NCBI GenBank assembly: GCA_024673055.1
Contig: GCA_024673055.1_4537.1
DNA: 64,000 nucleotides
Source: a phage
Strand: one strand, 5' to 3'
The first letter of the stretch is position 1. Every line of letters begins with the position of its first letter. Below the pieces are notes generated by a model. That model was not told where the DNA came from, searched no databases, and saw only the letters and a list, made by a program, of their open reading frames with translations. The translations under genes were made by a program, and so were the position numbers. Of the stretch, positions 4,659 to 62,915 are shown one piece after another.

Positions 4659-7600
4659 TGAGTAAGTTTACATGGGATATTGAAGCAAACGGATTGTTGA
4701 ATAATGACACTATTGATTATTTAGCTAGTCCTTATCGTCTCAAAGACACATTTCAAATGCACTGTATTGTCTTAGAGAACCATGAAACAGGAGAAATAGT
4801 AGCTTTCCACGATGGCCCTAAATACATCTTTGATGGGCGTCCTTATGAAGAGTCAGATGGTAAATACACATATGTTCTTAAAGAGTATGTGGCGCAAGAT
4901 TACACACATTTTCAACTAAAAGATTTCCCAGACTTTATTAATCATGAAGGTTATTTTAAAGATAAGCCTGAATATCTGGTTGAAATGGCTGTGGCTCACA
5001 ACGGTATCAACTACGACTGGTTGGCTACAAAACTGTTTTATGGCTTAGATTACAGTGTTAAATATAACACGTGGGGCAAAAATAAGGTAAAACTTATTGA
5101 CTCCTTGATTTTGAGTAAAGTGTTAAACCCAGATCGAAAGATTGAGGGCAAATCAGGACATAGTTTGGCAGCACTTTCTCGAAAGGCAGGTGGTGATGTA
5201 AAAATAGATTTCCGTAAAGAGATTCCAGAAGAAGATCGATTTAAGACTTTTGCTGCGGATATGCTTTATTACTGTATTTATGACAACAAAGCCAATACGA
5301 GCGTATATAATTACCTTATGGAAGAATGGGGCGATTATGATAAATGGGAAGGTCCATTTGAACTTGAACAACGTGTAGCAGACATTATTACACGCCAGGA
5401 ACACCGTGGGTTTGCTTTTAACATGAAGCAAGCAGAAGAGAACCTTGCTTTTTTGGATGCAGAAATGGAGCGTCTTCGTTTACTCGTTGAGCCTATTTTG
5501 CCACCTAAACCAGCAACAAAAGGTTATCTTAAGGCTTTTATTCCACCTAAGTTGCAAATTAAAAAGAACTTAGAGCCAACTAACCATATGATCAATTTTG
5601 CTAAGAAACATGATGGTCATTTGGAAGAGAGGGATGGCGATTGGTGGTTAGTTATGTTGGGGAAAGAGTGGAAACTGCCAGTTGCAGCAGATGAGCCTCT
5701 ATGTGATCCTAACATTCCTGCAACATTGAACGATACAACCCATATTAAAAACTGGCTCGTAGGATTAGGTTGGGTACCGTCTGAATATAAAGATAAAGAC
5801 TTGACGCTTAAATCTGGCACCAAAATTAAAAAGAGCGAGGAAGAACTTCAGAAAGGTATTAGAGCTTACGTTGAGCAAACTCTATCTTCTAATTTTTGTC
5901 AGGATCGTTGTGATCATCTGGAGTGCACACCGGAAACTTTGGAAAGGAAGATTCAAGAGCGTATAGCAAAAGGTAAAGGTCGCGGTCTTAAAGTATTGAC
6001 TAACCCATGTTTTACCAAAGGTCAGGAAAAAGAAATTTGTCCTAACCTGCAAGCTTTGGGTGAGAAATTTCCTTATGCTACACAGATTGTAGAATACTTA
6101 ACGTATAAGCATCGTAGGAACTCTATTTTAGGTGGCGGTGCTGATTGGGAAGAAGATGAAGAAGATCAAGAATACGATAAAGGTTTCTTAGCCGCAGTAA
6201 GGGCGGATGGGCGTATTCCTACACCAGCCGCTACATGTGATGCTGCAACCTCTCGTATGAAACATAGATCTGTAGCTAATATTCCTCGTGTCACATCTTT
6301 GTTTGGATGGGAGATGCGTAACTTGTTTGGTGTAGAGGTTCCTAAATACTTCCAGATTGGCTACGACTTCGACTCTTTGGAAGCAAAAATTGAATCGCAT
6401 TACTGTGTGCCGATGGATGCTCAAGCTTTGACTCGTAAAGGTTGGGTAGGATATCACGACCTGAAGGAAGGGGATGAGATTTTAGGGTACAATGCTGAAA
6501 CAGGTCTGAAAGAATGGACTAAAGTAAAAGGTAAGGTCTTCTATAAAAATAGTAAGACGTTTGAGATTAAAGGGAAATCACACACTTACCGTGCAACAGC
6601 AGATCACCGTTGGTATGTTAATACCCGTAGTAAAGGGAATACTTATGTGCCTAAAGTCAGAACAACTGCCGAGCTTTGCACAGGAGATAACATTATTTGT
6701 AATGCTCCATTTAACATGGAACAAGATCAGGTAAATAGTTTAACTTCTGTTCAACAGGGTAAATGGGATGTTCCGTGGGTAGAACGTGTAGTTAATATGT
6801 CTCATGCCGAGCGTGTAGCTTTCTTGGAAGGTTTCTTGATTGCAGATGGTTACTGGCACGAACATAAACAAAAACCTGTTTGGCGTTGGGCGCAGAACCC
6901 AGGTGAACTTTTTGAAGCAGCTTTAACTGCCTCGTACCTGGTGCATGGAGGCAATATCTCTGTAGCTTTCAATACAAAAGAGCAGAAAGTAAAAGTGGCA
7001 ACATTGACTAACCGCTCTCACATTCCTGTTCAAAGTTTGACTATTGAAGAGTGGGGTGTAGAAGATGTTTGGTGTCCACAAACAGAACTTGGTACGTGGG
7101 TCATGCGTCAGAAAGACTGCATTACCATCACAGGAAACTGTTGGCGGTACGAGCCGGAGCCACACGAATATTGTAACGCTCTGTTGTTAGAGAAACCTAA
7201 TGATGTTCACACAATGATGGCAAAACGTATCACTGAAACTATTGGACGTAAATTTGAACGTAGTCCTGCTAAATCTGTTAAGTATGGTATTACCTATGGT
7301 GCACAAGCCGACAAGGTTGCTAAAACAATTGGTAGCGACAAGTTTACAGGTCAATTGGTGTTCGATGCTTTCTGGGAAGCTGCATTCCCATTGGCGCGTC
7401 TTAAAGAACGTTTAAACGATTTCTGGGTTAAGACTGGTAAACAATATGTTTTGGGTATTGACGGTCGTAAGGTTCCTACTCGTTCTGCTCACGCGATTCT
7501 TAACTCTCTGTTCCAAAGCGGTGGGGTTATCTGTGCTAAACGTGCAATGGTTATTTATGATGACATGATCGAAGAAGAAGGGCTAAGTGTTGACTTCTTT

Positions 7601-15403: not shown

Positions 15404-15437
15404 TTATCTCTCCTATCATTAGACCATTCTATTGGAA

Positions 15438-15460
15438 GAAGAGGGGGAATCCCCCCTCTA
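15438..15460 (-). terminator. Terminator-like hairpin (minus strand)
   Basis: AGAGGGGG / CCCCCTCT inverted repeat between the tailspike and fibre genes. Confidence 0.35.
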
Positions 15461-15465
15461 TTCCA

Positions 15466-23151: not shown

Positions 23152-23390
23152 AACAACCTCTTTGTTTTTCTAAGTAAGCCCCTCTTTGGAGGGGCTTGCA
23201 GTGGTAGTGACAACACTTTGAGTTAGTACGATAGTAACTAAAGACAAGATTAACCCTGCTACGATATGTTTTCATCATTTTATCACATGGCGATGAGATT
23301 CGCTTGCAGGACATAGTTTGTGTGAGTCGTAATGAAGTCCATGATGTCACATTTATAATTTCCCCGCCGAAGCGGGGTTATTGTTTGCTC

Positions 23391-33807: not shown

Positions 33808-34509
33808 TTAACCTCCGTTGTTTGTTGGGGTATTAGTAGCTTCAGCAGTTCTTACTGTAATATCTGACTTAGGACCATTCGAAGCAACTTGACCTTTCAC
33901 ATCACCACCAGTTGACTTATTTGGTGCTGTTTTTACAGCAATAGCGTTAGTAGTGGCCTTAGAAACGAGACGGATTTGTTCAAACTCTAAATCAAATTGC
34001 ATAGCAAATTCAGATTTATAATCATACGAATAACCTTTGAGAATAACATTTTCAAAAGTTCTGTGTTCTGTCAAAAGAACTATTGGTTGTCTTGACTCAA
34101 ATATTTGATCTAGATACTCTATTGCTTGAGAAATCCTAGCACCATTTACACCTGCACTGTATAATTGATCTCGCATAAGCCGAATTGGTGTTTCGGTAAT
34201 TATACCTGAAAGTTTAAATCTGTTGTTTTTTATTTGAACGTGGTCACTTACATCCGATCCTGATTCTACTGGAAAACTTGTGACATCTGCCTCACGAGTT
34301 ACACCTATTTCAGGGACTGAATCGAAAGTAATTGCTTTAAAGTTTTGAATGTATTGATCACTTGAACTATTATAAACACTTGCTAAAATGCAGAAACCAT
34401 TATCACCCTTTACAGTAGATGCCGAGGTATTTTTATTCTCGGTAGAGTTGATTTCCTGTTCTGCCTTATAGACGGCTCTCACCGACTGTTGTGGAGTCAT
34501 TGCTGCCAT
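33808..34509 (-). CDS. Hypothetical tail protein
   Basis: 233 aa ORF; first gene after an internal promoter. Confidence 0.45.
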   Translation of the reverse strand: MAAMTPQQSVRAVYKAEQEINSTENKNTSASTVKGDNGFCILASVYNSSSDQYIQNFKAITFDSVPEIGVTREADVTSFPVESGSDVSDHVQIKNNRFKLSGIITETPIRLMRDQLYSAGVNGARISQAIEYLDQIFESRQPIVLLTEHRTFENVILKGYSYDYKSEFAMQFDLEFEQIRLVSKATTNAIAVKTAPNKSTGGDVKGQVASNGPKSDITVRTAEATNTPTNNGG

Positions 34510-34539
34510 GATAACCTCGTAGTAATGATAATGCCAAAA

Positions 34540-34558
34540 GGAAGATGCAAGATCTTCC
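34540..34558 (-). promoter_or_regulatory. 5'-proximal stem-loop in leader (stabiliser or attenuator candidate)
   Basis: GGAAGAT-CTTGC-ATCTTCC hairpin then UUUUGG, between the predicted transcription start and the RBS of 33808..34509. Confidence 0.35.
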
Positions 34559-34568
34559 CATATTGATT

Positions 34569-34598
34569 ATTGTAACACATATAGAAACTTCGTGTCAA
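34569..34598 (-). promoter_or_regulatory. Sigma70-like promoter (minus strand)
   Basis: On the minus strand TTGACA, 17 bp, TACAAT, immediately downstream of the tape-measure terminator. Confidence 0.55.
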
Positions 34599-34600
34599 GG

Positions 34601-34628
34601 GAAACGAAAAAACCCCGCCGAAGCGAGG
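34601..34628 (-). terminator. Rho-independent terminator (minus strand) after tape-measure gene
   Basis: On the minus strand CCUCGC-UUCG-GCGGGG followed by UUUUUUCGUUUC. Confidence 0.6.
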
Positions 34629-34635
34629 TATTTTA

Positions 34636-36624
34636 TTAACCACCAGTGTTAGATTGTCCACTTAGAGTTGAAAGAGACAAACGTTGGAAAATGCTATTTC
34701 CGCTATTTTGAATTCTTGCATCAAGAATATTTCCAAACTCGGAAGAAGGACTGATCGTAACTTTGATAAGATCACTTGGTATTGCTACCGTATTCTCAAC
34801 AACAGGTTGATTACGAGCCAAACTTACGTTAGGTGTATAGGCTGATTCACGTAAATCTTCAAGAGGATTACCAAATCCAAAAGCACGTGTCCTTGTTTGT
34901 TCTCCTCTCCACATACGACCAATATCTTGTGTATCAATGCCTGTTAAATTGTACAACCAATCTGCTACAGGATTGCTGTCTCCACTTTGCGTTGCCTCGT
35001 ATGCTTTTTGTGCCATAGATTTATTAGGATCTGTGTTGTCTCCGAATGTATCTGGGAATGTTTCTTTAAGCCAATTGGTAAAAGATCCGAAACCATCTCC
35101 CAATTCTTTAGCAAAACCTCCTAATTGAACTGTTGTCTTACCGAGTTCTTCACCTAAATCTTTGGCAAACTGATCTAACACTTTAACGTTATCCAACCAA
35201 GAATCATCTTTAGGTAACGCTTTCACAAAACCCTCTAAGAAGTGGTTCTGCATACCTTGACCTACAAGCTGAACTGTTGCAGCAAAACGAGTAAACTCCT
35301 TAGAAGCATCTATTTGTTCTTGAGTTAATGTTGCACCTGTTCTTTGAAGCATTTTCAATACTTCATTGTATCCTTCGCCGTTTTTACTAAACATACGTTG
35401 GTAGTGCATAAGGTCATCACCAAGGTTTTCAAGAAGTCGCCCGATTTGAGCAGAGTTCATACCTCGACGCTCACCTTCATTAACAGTAGCCTGAATAAAA
35501 GCTAAAGGATCGTTCTGTAAAGGTTTAAGCTGTTCTGGATTCCATCCAAACAAGTTCATAATGTCAGTTATGCCATTATCACCGCCTTTCCACTTCCCTT
35601 CTTTCTCATTCCACTTTGCAGCTAAAACGGTATTACCAAGACGTTCACGAACGTCTTTAATATTATCTATTGATTTAATAATATTTGCAGAGTCTACACC
35701 GTTCTGTTCACCCCAAGCTGTCATTGCCAAAATAGCGTTGGCGTTTGTCTGAACGTTTTCAGCGCCACGACTTACAAGCTTAATTCTTTCGTTAGTATTC
35801 ATCAACGTGTTACCAACTACAGAACCACCTGCAAACAACCCAGCACCTATTAAAGAGGATGCAATCATGCGTGGATTAAGACCTGCTGCACCTTCTTTTA
35901 ATTGTCCGTATCTACGATCACGATCACGTTTTTGTTGCGCTAATTCACGCTTACGGTTGCGTTCTATATCTCTAAGTTCACGATTTCGCATACGTATACG
36001 CATTTTAGCTTCTGCTTCTAGCTCTCTACGAATACGGCGACGACCGCGAACCTCGTCTTCTATTTCAGCATTCTTTTCACGATGAGATCTGCGTAAGGCA
36101 TCTAACTGGTGAGCAAGAGCTTGGTTCATACGTTGAAGAGTTATTTCACCCTTTTTGTATTGCTCTACAGCTTTACCCATAACGTCTCTAGCTTCTTGCA
36201 TAGCGCCAGGACTAGCTTTACTAAATGCTCTTGCTCGATAGTTAAAGTTCTGCAAACGAAGATTACCTAAATCTTCCCTACGTGCTGCTGCTTTAGCTTC
36301 GCGTTCAGCAGCTTTACGAGCTTTTTCTTCTTCTCTTCCTTGCGGGGTTTTAGGAGTTCTAGGTCTACCAGATCCACCTACAGGAGCACCCGCTCCAGCG
36401 GGAGTAGGTGCTCGCATAGGTTTTTGACTTTGAGTTTGAGCTTTCTTAAGTTCACGCTCAATCTCTTTCATTTGTTGTCTAAACTTGGTCATGTTCATAG
36501 TGGGTTGCATTTTATTTGCAAACTTCTGAACACTCAACACGGCATCTTTTGCTTCCTTGAGACTGTTCTTGTCCACCTTAAACGTAACCACGTTACTAAT
36601 TTTGGAGGCGTTAATTTCTAACAA
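34636..36624 (-). CDS. Tail tape measure protein
   Basis: 662 aa, extended Arg/Lys/Glu-rich coiled-coil regions, Gly-rich hydrophobic segment (LIGAGLFAGGSVVGN); follows the chaperone genes. Confidence 0.6.
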   Translation of the reverse strand: MLEINASKISNVVTFKVDKNSLKEAKDAVLSVQKFANKMQPTMNMTKFRQQMKEIERELKKAQTQSQKPMRAPTPAGAGAPVGGSGRPRTPKTPQGREEEKARKAAEREAKAAARREDLGNLRLQNFNYRARAFSKASPGAMQEARDVMGKAVEQYKKGEITLQRMNQALAHQLDALRRSHREKNAEIEDEVRGRRRIRRELEAEAKMRIRMRNRELRDIERNRKRELAQQKRDRDRRYGQLKEGAAGLNPRMIASSLIGAGLFAGGSVVGNTLMNTNERIKLVSRGAENVQTNANAILAMTAWGEQNGVDSANIIKSIDNIKDVRERLGNTVLAAKWNEKEGKWKGGDNGITDIMNLFGWNPEQLKPLQNDPLAFIQATVNEGERRGMNSAQIGRLLENLGDDLMHYQRMFSKNGEGYNEVLKMLQRTGATLTQEQIDASKEFTRFAATVQLVGQGMQNHFLEGFVKALPKDDSWLDNVKVLDQFAKDLGEELGKTTVQLGGFAKELGDGFGSFTNWLKETFPDTFGDNTDPNKSMAQKAYEATQSGDSNPVADWLYNLTGIDTQDIGRMWRGEQTRTRAFGFGNPLEDLRESAYTPNVSLARNQPVVENTVAIPSDLIKVTISPSSEFGNILDARIQNSGNSIFQRLSLSTLSGQSNTGG

Positions 36625-37918: not shown

Positions 37919-37964
37919 TATAGATCCTCTTTATTTTGATAACGGGGGCTTAACCCCCGCCGTA

Positions 37965-39372: not shown

Positions 39373-40032
39373 TTATTCGGTAGGGTTGTTAAATAATGAT
39401 CCATTTTGATTGACTGACGAGTATTCGCCTGGAACCAAAGTAATTGCATAAACCCTGTTTAGAATTAAATCTAAAGGGATAGGATCATTGTAACTATCTC
39501 TGAATGAACGGATGTGCATGTTGATTGCTTCTATTGGTGTAGTAGCAATATCTTCAATACTCATACGAGTGTTGAACGTCATAACCATACGCGCTCTTAA
39601 TTCAGTCTTATCTCCGTCTACAATTGTATTGGCTTGAGCTATATTGGAGGCTCCTAAAAAACCAAGACCTTTAGAATAGAGATGTTTGTATTTTAATTCC
39701 TCTGCACCACGGAGAGCAGCCAGAACATAGCTCATCAAAGTGGTAGGTCTTCCACGATAGGCTACAAGTTCAATCTCGTAGGTATTATCCATCTCGTAGG
39801 AATACATGTCATTTTGAATAGAGCTTCGGTAAGACCAACCTCCAGAATCGCTGGAAGTGATAATACGTAGTGCTAGGTAAGGAGTATCCGGTTTAATGAA
39901 TGGCTTATCCATAACATAGACTGGCAACCCCACTAATTCTTGAAGGAAGCCACCTATATTTAAGTAGATGGCATTTTCGTATGCTTCTATTTGTTGGTAA
40001 ATATTAGCCAAAGTTCCCTCCTTCTGTTCCAT
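39373..40032 (-). CDS. Hypothetical head-tail joining / tail completion protein
   Basis: 219 aa ORF between capsid and sheath genes. Confidence 0.45.
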   Translation of the reverse strand: MEQKEGTLANIYQQIEAYENAIYLNIGGFLQELVGLPVYVMDKPFIKPDTPYLALRIITSSDSGGWSYRSSIQNDMYSYEMDNTYEIELVAYRGRPTTLMSYVLAALRGAEELKYKHLYSKGLGFLGASNIAQANTIVDGDKTELRARMVMTFNTRMSIEDIATTPIEAINMHIRSFRDSYNDPIPLDLILNRVYAITLVPGEYSSVNQNGSLFNNPTE

Positions 40033-40453
40033 AAGACCAGGAGTTGTTTTGATCGTCTAATATTGCAACACAGTGATGATGGACTAAGAAAGATGTTCTG
40101 GTCCAATCTTTAAGGGAATAAACAGAATACCATTTACCATCTATCAATATTTGATCTGATAACTGTTCTGTTCCTTGTTGTAACCCCTTCATTTCTGTTT
40201 TAGTCCAGAAACTATATTGAGCCTTAGATCTGTAACCTTCGGGTAGTGCATTCAGTGTTTTACCAGATATCGGTTGTAAGCTTGCCGCTTCAATAGTAAA
40301 TGGTTCATATTCTACACTACTTTCTAAGTTAGCAATAACTGAACCAACAGCCTCTTTGTAGACTCGTCTACGACCTTGGTATTCAGTTAGATCAAGGAGA
40401 GTAAATTGATCTAGTAACACTTGTATCTCCTTTTTAGTATACATCAAAAACAA
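40004..40453 (-). CDS. Hypothetical head-tail joining protein
   Basis: 149 aa ORF; small overlap with the downstream gene. Confidence 0.45.
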   Translation of the reverse strand: MFLMYTKKEIQVLLDQFTLLDLTEYQGRRRVYKEAVGSVIANLESSVEYEPFTIEAASLQPISGKTLNALPEGYRSKAQYSFWTKTEMKGLQQGTEQLSDQILIDGKWYSVYSLKDWTRTSFLVHHHCVAILDDQNNSWSYGTEGGNFG

Positions 40454-44979: not shown

Positions 44980-45015
44980 TTGAAACCTCTTAAAAACAGA
45001 TATCCCATAAATCTT

Positions 45016-45044
45016 AGTCTACAGGATATTTGTTGTTTTGTCAA
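45016..45044 (-). promoter_or_regulatory. Sigma70-like promoter (minus strand) upstream of head genes
   Basis: On the minus strand CTATTGACAA (-35), 17 bp, TAGACT; shares the AACTATTGACAA-type -35 with the tRNA promoters. Confidence 0.45.
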
Positions 45045-46638: not shown

Positions 46639-46707
46639 TTGTTCCTCCAGTCAGGTATAAAATCGTTAAGGCAAGGCTGTATTATATACAACCTCACCTA
46701 TCTAGTT

Positions 46708-46736
46708 ATAATACACTTTAAAGTGACTTTTGTCAA
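46708..46736 (-). promoter_or_regulatory. Sigma70-like promoter (minus strand) upstream of portal gene
   Basis: On the minus strand TTGACA, 17 bp, TATTAT, in the terminase-portal intergenic region. Confidence 0.5.
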
Positions 46737-51640: not shown

Positions 51641-51728
51641 TGGTGGTGAGTGATGGAGTCGAACCACCCGAATCGCAATGATAACAGATTTACAGTCTGC
51701 CCCGCTACCCCTACGGAATTAACTCACC
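51641..51728 (-). tRNA. tRNA-Tyr (anticodon GTA), type II, CCA encoded
   Basis: Acceptor GGTGAGT/ACTCACC, anticodon arm GCAGA-CTGTAAA-TCTGT, long variable arm, T-arm GGTGG-TTCGACT-CCATC. Confidence 0.65.
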
Positions 51729-53403: not shown

Positions 53404-53430
53404 TGCACACCTCCATTCTTGTTAAGATGT

Positions 53431-53632
53431 TCCGTACTGTACTTCATACTGATCTATAGATCAAGTATTATTTATAATAATTTATTATTTTATTTTTAAT
53501 TGATAGAAGTTGATCTGTACGTACCAGTTCTGATACACTGTACCTGTTTGTTAGATCTAATAATTATTTATTATTAATATTTAATAATTATTAATCTAGT
53601 ACAGAGTACAGTACTTGAGTACAGAGTACTAC
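53431..53632. repeat. AT-rich divergent control region with clustered GATC/GTAC palindromes and direct repeats (origin or operator candidate)
   Basis: 14-bp palindrome TGATCTATAGATCA, GTACGTAC, inverted pair GTACTGTAC / GTACAGTAC about 170 bp apart, direct repeat AGTACAGAGTAC x2, long A/T runs; no ORF. Confidence 0.5.
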
Positions 53633-53884
53633 ATCAACAACCTAAAACCTTAACTCGCTGCGCTCGTTAATAGATTTCTAGGGTAGCATACTTCGAACAC
53701 AAAAGTCAAGAGTTTTATTAAAAATTATTTTCTGTGTGCAAAAACCTTGCTTAAACAGGTAGCAATAGTATAGCCTATAACATAAGCTTCATAAGAGGCT
53801 CGTAGAGCAAGTTCACTTACTAGGTAAGGTGATTTATCATCTTATATATAAAAAGTGCGTCAGAGACGCGTTTAGGAGGCTAGA

Positions 53885-62857: not shown

Positions 62858-62886
62858 TTGACTTGCGGGATTAGTTATGATATTAT
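62858..62886 (+). promoter_or_regulatory. Sigma70-like promoter
   Basis: TTGACT, 17 bp, TATTAT. Confidence 0.55.
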
Positions 62887-62915
62887 GCCTACCTACTTAA
62901 TGAGGTAGGCTTTTT
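62887..62915 (+). promoter_or_regulatory. 5'-terminal stem-loop in leader (stabiliser or attenuator candidate)
   Basis: GCCTACCTAC-TTAATGA-GGTAGGC followed by TTTTT, lying between the -10 box and the AGGAGG RBS. Confidence 0.4.

Follow-up and report, generated by a model that had tools for sequence, protein, structure and literature searches.

The stretch of DNA analyzed here, 64,000 nucleotides of phage contig GCA_024673055.1_4537.1 (NCBI GenBank assembly GCA_024673055.1) and referred to throughout as the window, is 98-100% identical to genomes of Phapecoctavirus (phAPEC8-like myoviruses of the Stephanstirmvirinae), with Escherichia phage BI-EHEC as top match. Positions 34540-34598 belong to the tail gene block of the minus strand, with the tape-measure gene on one side and a gene for a protein of 233 amino acids (aa) on the other. 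We interpret this segment as the downstream half of a compact stop-and-restart junction within the tail genes, endowed with a lineage-specific leader stem-loop, and as one instance of a recurrence that is real and in which two different geometries are mixed; we give this interpretation a probability of about 55%. Taken alone, the flagged site holds nothing unusual: a promoter preceded by a terminator and followed by a small leader hairpin. The design class to which this hairpin belongs is real, but the hairpin itself is a weak and lineage-specific example. Below, the tail junction is called site 1 (34539-34598), and three further junctions of the window are called site 2 (62858-62915), site 3 (46669-46736) and site 4 (44992-45044). 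Their features are listed in Table 1.

Table 1. Features of the four promoter-hairpin junctions and of the genes flanking site 1
Feature	Position	Strand	Evidence or remark
Site 1: tail length tape-measure protein gene (upstream unit)	34636..36624	-	Open reading frame (ORF) list; phrog_16051, E = 0; annotated so in relatives
Site 1: predicted intrinsic terminator of tape-measure gene, ACCTCGC-TTCG-GCGGGGT + TTTTTC	34606..34629	-	Terminator scan; fold
Site 1: predicted sigma-70-type promoter with extended -10, TTGACA, 18 nt, TGtTACAAT	34569..34598	-	11/12 match + TG
Site 1: predicted transcription start, 6-8 nt past -10 (A at 34563 or 34561)	34561..34563	-	Standard sigma-70 geometry
Site 1: leader stem-loop GGGAAGAT-CTTGC-ATCTTCCT, containing GATC, then only UUU-GG	34539..34559	-	Folds; comparison with relatives
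Site 1: conserved block (5' leader, GAGG, ATG, first ~10 codons)	34481..34570	-	86/90 identical to L010
Site 1: downstream 233-aa gene, first of baseplate/tail-fibre unit	33808..34509	-	phrog_817; relatives have it annotated as 'tail fiber protein' or 'tail tube initiator'
Site 2: predicted promoter TTGACT, 17 nt, TGaTATTAT	62858..62886	+	Promoter scan; hexamers kept in six lineages, spacer diverged
Site 2: predicted terminator hairpin GCCTACCT-ACTTAATG-AGGTAGGC + T5 of rdgC-like exonuclease gene	62887..62915	+	-12.7 to -14.3 kcal/mol; ARNOLD terminator in Schickermooser
Site 3: predicted promoter TTGACA-17-TATTAT, between terminase large subunit and portal genes	46708..46736	-	Promoter census
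Site 3: 14-bp leader hairpin, 8 nt between -10 and stem, without U-run	46669..46699	-	-17.7 to -18.2 kcal/mol, z = -6.0
Site 4: predicted promoter TTGACA-17-TAGACT (45044-45016) and inverted repeat 45029-45018 / 45011-45000 around -10 and start, then T5	44992..45044	-	Folds; comparison

In the proposed sequence of events, the tape-measure transcript would end at a strong intrinsic terminator, and 7 nt further on the baseplate and tail-fibre genes would be served by a fresh start at a host sigma-70 promoter with an extended -10. This second mRNA, starting at about 34561-34563, would present an AU-rich stem-loop 2-4 nt from its 5' end, followed by an unstructured leader and the GAGG of the ribosome binding site. 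If this stem-loop is functional, it would most likely shield the 5' end against RppH and RNase E, enzymes that need at least 2 unpaired 5' nucleotides and prefer at least 3 (PMC8833179; review PMC3997798). We distinguish two geometries among the recurring junctions. In geometry A, the hairpin would lie entirely within the RNA made from the new promoter, with 2-6 nt separating it from the predicted 5' end, and has no U-tract; site 1 (34559-34539), site 3 (46699-46669) and a cassette family of the early region of related phages would belong here. In geometry B, a putative terminator overlaps the -10 or start of the next promoter (62887-62910 at site 2, 45029-45000 at site 4): RNA reading through from upstream would fold and terminate, and RNA from the embedded promoter, lacking the 5' arm, would pass.

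Our comparison of the tape-measure/baseplate junction of site 1 covered Pseudomonas phage PsgM04F, phiWec181, Justusliebigvirus (KKE7M, alia, KKP_3264), Citrobacter phage Tr1 and 35 IMG/VR loci; L-numbers designate our comparison sequences, among which L008 and L057 are stretches of phage Schickermooser (NC_048196) and L009 is phiWec181 (LC739534). The terminator folds at -12.4 kcal/mol (z = -2.9), is annotated by ARNOLD in Schickermooser and is kept in Justusliebigvirus, Tr1 and L013. The preliminary description of this DNA had placed a consensus promoter directly behind it, and indeed TTGACA (34598-34593), TG (34577-34576) and TACAAT (34574-34569) follow on the minus strand, with 7 nt between terminator and -35. 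Eleven of twelve hexamer positions match in addition to the TG, the top promoter match within 14 kb; the spacer measures 18 nt rather than the 17 first reported. Wherever the junction is present (Phapecoctavirus, Justusliebigvirus, Tr1, L013 and L021), TTGACA, TG and TAnnAT are invariant, and the same holds for a set of 7 sequences from several genera. The spacer is only 44-67% identical (down to 8/18) in L010, L011 and L013, where the -35 is conserved at 6/6 positions. Because hexamers and TG remain invariant across genera while the spacer diverges, as expected for a working promoter, the predicted sigma-70 promoter with extended -10 is well supported. More distant relatives (L016-L020 and L022-L044) show no promoter at this place, only a GC hairpin across the stop codon; the stop-and-restart junction is therefore a feature of the Stephanstirmvirinae. 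Consensus sigma-70 and extended -10 promoters were predicted across late genes in the rV5 genome paper as well (PMC3606486).

Two observations concern the same interval. In phiWec181, a gene for a 337-aa HNH/homing-type endonuclease (phrog_681; L009 4903-5916) has been inserted, in opposite orientation, precisely where the terminator would stand, so that it directly separates the tape-measure gene from the site 1 promoter. Furthermore, a 54-aa GTG ORF called mechanically at 34497-34661 (minus) covers the entire terminator-promoter-leader stretch and is almost certainly spurious.

The leader hairpin of site 1 is a more modest element. Nine nucleotides, AATCAATAT, separate it from the -10, so that it begins 2-4 nt after the predicted start. 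Its stem has eight pairs, seven Watson-Crick and one G.U, and is AU-rich with three G-C pairs out of eight; GAGG (34518-34515) and the ATG at 34509 follow. A stable hairpin with a U-run had been described here. The hairpin near the start is present, yet moderately stable rather than strong: it folds at -8.2 to -9.6 kcal/mol (z = -2.2), which 16 of 500 shuffled sequences equal. The run amounts to four U (34536-34539), with UUUGGCAU as the tail past the paired U, whereas an intrinsic terminator calls for a G+C-rich stem directly followed by a U-tract of at least 5 U in 8. Our terminator scan makes no call for this hairpin on the minus strand. A larger leader structure was considered and rejected, since the entire leader, folded over 68 or 89 nt, does no better than shuffled sequence (z = -0.03 and +0.18).

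The hairpin is weakly supported and, in our comparison with relatives, confined to Phapecoctavirus-type genomes. It is identical in the window, PsgM04F, phiWec181 and L010, the latter three having the tail UCUUUG. In L013 the 5' arm (ATATGGGAAGATCC) persists without its 3' partner, and in Justusliebigvirus and Tr1 we find weak alternative folds of -3.7 and -6.2 kcal/mol, neither of them significant. A GATC (Dam) at 34550-34553, within an AGATCT palindrome located in the 5' arm and loop, is retained in L013 and Tr1 despite the loss of the hairpin. The block conserved between the window and L010 is sharply bounded: it starts right past the -10 and stops about 29 nt into the gene, and its flanks are 70-75% identical (about 22/30 per 30-nt window). 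The whole leader is therefore constrained, and the position of the boundary also supports a start at about 34561-34563. This constraint is not assignable to the hairpin specifically.

Several observations weigh against a functional leader stem-loop at site 1. It folds only marginally better than shuffled sequences, and L021 has the promoter without any hairpin, its -10 running directly into the ribosome binding site. RNAalifold applied to six lineages yields -1.3 kcal/mol with a penalizing covariation term of +1.08, that is, no conserved structure. The conserved block could stem from constraints on translation initiation or from a recent recombination tract instead of the hairpin, and the predicted 5' tail, 2-4 nt depending on the true start, may be too long to protect the 5' end. 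Finally, our literature searches yielded neither a transcriptome nor mapped start sites for Phapecoctavirus, Justusliebigvirus or Vequintavirus, and all start sites used here are predicted, as are promoter activity, termination and any effect on mRNA stability.

In the most probable alternative, the hairpin of site 1 is functionless in itself, a chance inverted repeat either in a leader conserved for other reasons (promoter escape, ribosome binding, first codons) or in a tract recently exchanged between Phapecoctavirus sublineages. That L013 and Tr1 retain the 5' arm ATATGGGAAGATC without the 3' arm is what one would expect of such a repeat, as are the extension of the conserved block into coding sequence, the marginal fold and the absence of covariation. 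However, lineages with 68-75% identity in their coding flanks agree at each of the 21 hairpin positions, and in every lineage a conserved GGG pairs with some downstream C/U run at the same position (-3.4 to -6.2 kcal/mol). Moreover, a hairpin just past the start is under clear selection at two other promoter classes in the same genome. We thus regard a chance repeat as a serious possibility, albeit somewhat unlikely. Under the stop-and-restart interpretation, a 5' stabilizing hairpin, one of the functions first suggested for this leader, is possible at 34559-34539, provided that the predicted start is correct.

Such a function is much better supported at site 3, although still on predicted starts, and nothing else in the window argues as strongly as the portal-gene leader for selection on a stem-loop right where a transcript begins. 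We examined L051, three Justusliebigvirus contigs, L049, L050, L052, rV5 and Klebsiella phage KP13-16; searches with the portal protein in IMG/VR contributed only one further lineage. Because the stems have no sequence homology and could not be aligned by MAFFT for RNAalifold, the site was judged by independent folds and shuffles. A hairpin is present in 8/8 lineages, with differing sequences and z-scores from -3.5 to -6.0, and is followed by no conserved U-run. U-rich tails do occur behind it in rV5 and L049, and the GenBank record of rV5 names its site 3 hairpin a rho-independent terminator.

The two sites of geometry B differ from these in their presumed working. The preliminary description had seen at 62858-62915 the same layout as at site 1. 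All the elements are there, in another register: the 8-bp stem starts at the first base past the -10. In the usual sigma-70 geometry, transcription starts about 7 nt past the -10. Because the stem abuts the -10, the predicted start of site 2 (about 62892-62895) falls within the 5' arm or at its end; the promoter's own RNA should therefore be unable to form the hairpin, which only read-through from the rdgC-like gene could form. Site 2, judged by this predicted start, is a terminator-embedded promoter and not a 5' leader hairpin. The abutting arrangement TAnnAT|GCC is kept in six lineages, including Phapecoctavirus, phiWec188, Justusliebigvirus (with one G.U pair), Klebsiella phage KP2025 and Tr1; in KP2025 and Tr1 the U-run decays. 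Past the T5 come AGGAGG, an ATG and a conserved ORF of 69 aa. Site 4 appears to be built likewise, as a portal-gene terminator overlapping the next promoter. Its predicted read-through RNA forms a 12-bp terminator hairpin of -10.5 kcal/mol, RNA started at the promoter would hold the 3' arm only, and the sequence is near-invariant in all lineages compared. Promoter P051 of rV5, listed in the supplement of the rV5 paper, has the same arrangement, with GCACCATA ... TATGGTGC around the -10.

Recurrence of promoter plus hairpin junctions, already suspected in the preliminary description, turns out to be wider than first thought, extending to sites 3 and 4 and to the early cassette family. Counted over the window and 44 kb of Schickermooser together, 7 of 25 intergenic promoter-like sites are accompanied by a stem of 8 bp or more that begins no further than 16 nt past the -10, versus 1 of 73 promoter-like matches within genes (Fisher p = 2e-4), a census that overstates the case because intergenic DNA is rich in terminator hairpins. 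The early region of Schickermooser (L057 29.5-40.7 kb, about 137.8-149 kb of the record) contains small genes of unknown function separated by gaps of 80-90 nt, and almost all gaps hold one and the same cassette. The order is constant: TTGACA-16/17-TAAGAT, TAAACT or TATAGT; GTATCACGTA; a GC hairpin; and a purine-rich ribosome binding site. The hairpin, for example GGGCGGCA-ATGG-TGCCGCTC, folds at -11 to -17 kcal/mol, stands 10-12 nt past the -10 and is devoid of U-run, and the element linking the promoter to it (GGGCGGC..GCCGCYC) is ATCACGTA.

We built a covariance model of this cassette (R1; ATCACGTAGGGCGGC..GCCGCYC after the -10) from 22 copies. It gives 26 matches in L057 and none in L008. 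Covariation reaches 0.222 versus 0.108 in shuffled alignments, with 0/500 shuffles as high; together with common G.U pairs and variable stem and loop lengths, this favors a structure formed by the sense-strand RNA over a double-stranded DNA operator. The cassette also occurs in a diverged Phapecoctavirus-like contig (L062), as exact matches and new stem variants, and blastn finds it in Justusliebigvirus and Vequintavirus genomes such as FV3; it was noted in L063 and L064. A degenerate cassette pattern run against IMG/VR gave no match, which we do not count as absence, as L062 belongs to the same collection and has exact matches. Rfam has nothing above threshold for the cassette, and in the searchable literature we found no discussion of early promoter plus 5'-hairpin cassettes. 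The GenBank record of ASO2A labels them 'promoter' then, 4-10 nt on, 'terminator'. The window itself lacks the early cassette: cmsearch with filters off finds a single match of E = 8.1 at 5062, no window site matches, and the four sites share no sequence apart from the promoter hexamers. Elsewhere in Schickermooser (L008 about 39960-40036, minus), TTGACT-16-TATAAT is followed after 12 nt by a hairpin, TGGGAGGA-GGTGAG-TCCTCCCA, which contains Shine-Dalgarno-like GGAGG sequences and may therefore mask a ribosome binding site.

We may also hypothesize, with considerable reserve, that rV5-like and phAPEC8-like phages possess an undescribed family-wide system, in which nearly all early and some late transcripts would start with a stem-loop at a fixed distance of a few nucleotides past a sigma-70 start, the hairpins at 34559-34539 and 46699-46669 being diverged late counterparts. 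The early hairpin (ATCACGTAGGGCGGC-loop-GCCGCYC) is conserved in sequence across two subfamilies, which suggests recognition by a specific phage or host factor, acting for example on early-mRNA lifetime or translation, or in gene shuffling of the kind discussed next. As a whole, this broader hypothesis is doubtful.

The junctions bring to mind the promoter early stem-loop elements (PeSLs) of T4-type phages, intergenic near-consensus sigma-70 promoters with an adjacent stem-loop (Arbiol et al. 2010, PMC2839356; Comeau et al. 2014, PMC4122927). In these, the stem-loop can precede the -35, separate the two hexamers, cover the -35 or the -10, or come directly after the -10 (PMC2839356). Sites 1-4 all combine a near-consensus promoter with an adjacent stem-loop, and geometries A and B both match positional subclasses; sites 2 and 4 agree with the last two positions. 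In the relatives, the early family is likewise multi-copy, GC-rich (G-run ... C-run) and placed ahead of small genes of unknown function. The phage groups are unrelated, however (Stephanstirmvirinae and Vequintavirinae here), and the window sites are single-copy and unrelated in sequence, without the multi-copy motif of about 100 bp that only the early family, outside the window, provides. PeSLs reside in hyperplastic regions before orphan genes, as opposed to the present sites between core structural or recombination genes. In geometry A, furthermore, the hairpin would lie past the start, without U-run, and be transcribed at the mRNA 5' end rather than act as a terminator. As to the recombination associated with PeSLs (insertions, deletions, mini-circles), we observed one HNH insertion, that of phiWec181 at the site 1 junction.

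The junctions might be read as PeSL-like mobile regulatory cassettes, whose main evolutionary role would be to serve as recombination sites for gene shuffling, as proposed for T4-type phages. Their anatomy fits two of five PeSL subclasses, with the stem-loop past or over the -10 (PMC2839356); about 25 repeated early-region copies in relatives precede small genes of unknown function; and the phiWec181 endonuclease gene has settled exactly between the tape-measure gene and the promoter. Yet the four window sites have only the promoter hexamers in common and escape the early-cassette model, sites 1, 3 and 4 lie between core structural genes of invariant order, and a single homing-endonuclease insertion is no proof of cassette-mediated shuffling. 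We hold this role to be improbable for the junctions.

Regulated attenuation subject to antitermination, the other function initially suggested, fares worse. The 34559-34536 hairpin and U-run would form an attenuator that stops most transcripts of the promoter until relieved by a phage antiterminator, thereby delaying a late gene that is under a constitutive sigma-70 promoter. Near-consensus sigma-70 promoters on late structural genes do raise a question of timing, UUUU and hairpin are located between start and ribosome binding site, and the U-rich tails behind the portal-gene leader hairpins of rV5 and L049 could be cited in favor. Nevertheless, the run of four U and the three G-C pairs of the stem earn no terminator call, and we identified no antiterminator protein, put- or nut-like RNA element or Rfam match. 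The hairpin is restricted to Phapecoctavirus-type genomes and shows no compensatory changes, and its U-run is interrupted (UCUUU) in the closest outgroup that retains it; for these reasons an attenuator at site 1 is very unlikely. Justusliebigvirus, L013 and L021 keep the promoter and lose the hairpin, and the best-conserved leader hairpins, those of the portal gene and the early cassettes, have no conserved U-run either.

Least probable of all is an action of the palindrome GGAAGATC-TTGC-ATCTTCC as double-stranded DNA at +4 to +24, as operator for a dimeric phage regulator or as Dam (GATC) methylation-sensitive site: the repeat is centered just past the start, a classic repressor position, GATC is retained in the window, L013 and Tr1, and the phage encodes DNA methyltransferases, but outside Phapecoctavirus only one half-site is conserved, ATAWGGGRRRAT does not recur in the window (5 matches vs 4.6 expected) and no candidate regulator was identified. 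A T7/T3-like promoter was also considered, as the conserved ATATGGGAAGA past the -10 resembles TATAGGGAGA; it was rejected given the same non-recurrence of ATAWGGGRRRAT (5 vs 4.6 expected) and the absence of an annotated phage RNA polymerase.

Returning to the stop-and-restart interpretation, three other known systems provide points of reference. The E. coli ompA and papA leaders have 5'-terminal stabilizing stem-loops (Emory, Bouvet and Belasco 1992, as cited in PMC3997798). Geometry A resembles them in its predicted stem-loop a few nucleotides from a 5' triphosphate end, single-stranded leader, ribosome binding site and lack of U-tract, and would be expected to hinder RppH and RNase E similarly. 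It differs in its unpaired 5' tails, predicted at 2-4 nt for site 1, 2-3 nt for site 3 and 4-6 nt for the early family, which are at or beyond the protective length (PMC8833179). In rV5, Kropinski et al. (2013, PMC3606486) listed 33 sigma-70-like promoters (11 with extended -10) and 20 terminators over early and late genes. The upstream half of site 1 is an ordinary terminator-then-promoter operon boundary of this kind, but promoters and terminators are listed apart in that paper and the promoter-then-hairpin order is not described (PMC3606486). Lambda PR'/Q with tR', and the put RNA of HK022 (PMC9378689), likewise have a late or early promoter with an RNA or DNA element behind it that targets RNA polymerase ahead of the first gene; the likeness is one of layout only, the junction being without Q-binding element, pause-inducing -10-like repeat, two-stem put-like RNA or efficient terminator.

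Other features of the window are mentioned for completeness. Rfam matches over the window consist of tRNAs only and include an eleventh tRNA at 51644-51728 (minus, 39 bits) that is not among the ten of ARAGORN. A non-coding, AT-rich stretch of 481 nt between divergent gene blocks (53404-53884), in which GTACAG/AGTAC motifs recur and long runs of A/T occur, is a possible origin or divergent control region. GC-rich intergenic hairpins without U-run are found at 23351-23390, 37919-37964 and 15404-15465 (minus), for example CCCCGCTTCGGCGGGG, and may be RNA 3'-end or processing structures of the late operon; the CGCTTCGGCG stem and tetraloop are also present in the tape-measure terminator.

The description given here consists of sequence anatomy, conservation pattern and folding statistics. 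Sites 1 and 2 differ in their presumed working: 10 nt of register set whether the hairpin belongs to the old or the new transcript. Terminator-embedded compact promoters would insulate adjacent transcription units within about 70 bp, a property of interest to phage engineering and synthetic biology. A widely used group of therapeutic coliphages carries a PeSL-like promoter plus 5'-hairpin family, which GenBank mislabels as 'promoter plus terminator'. If it is true that such 5' hairpins set mRNA lifetime, this would help explain how these phages tune expression from uniform sigma-70-like promoters with neither an RNA polymerase of their own nor a known late sigma factor.

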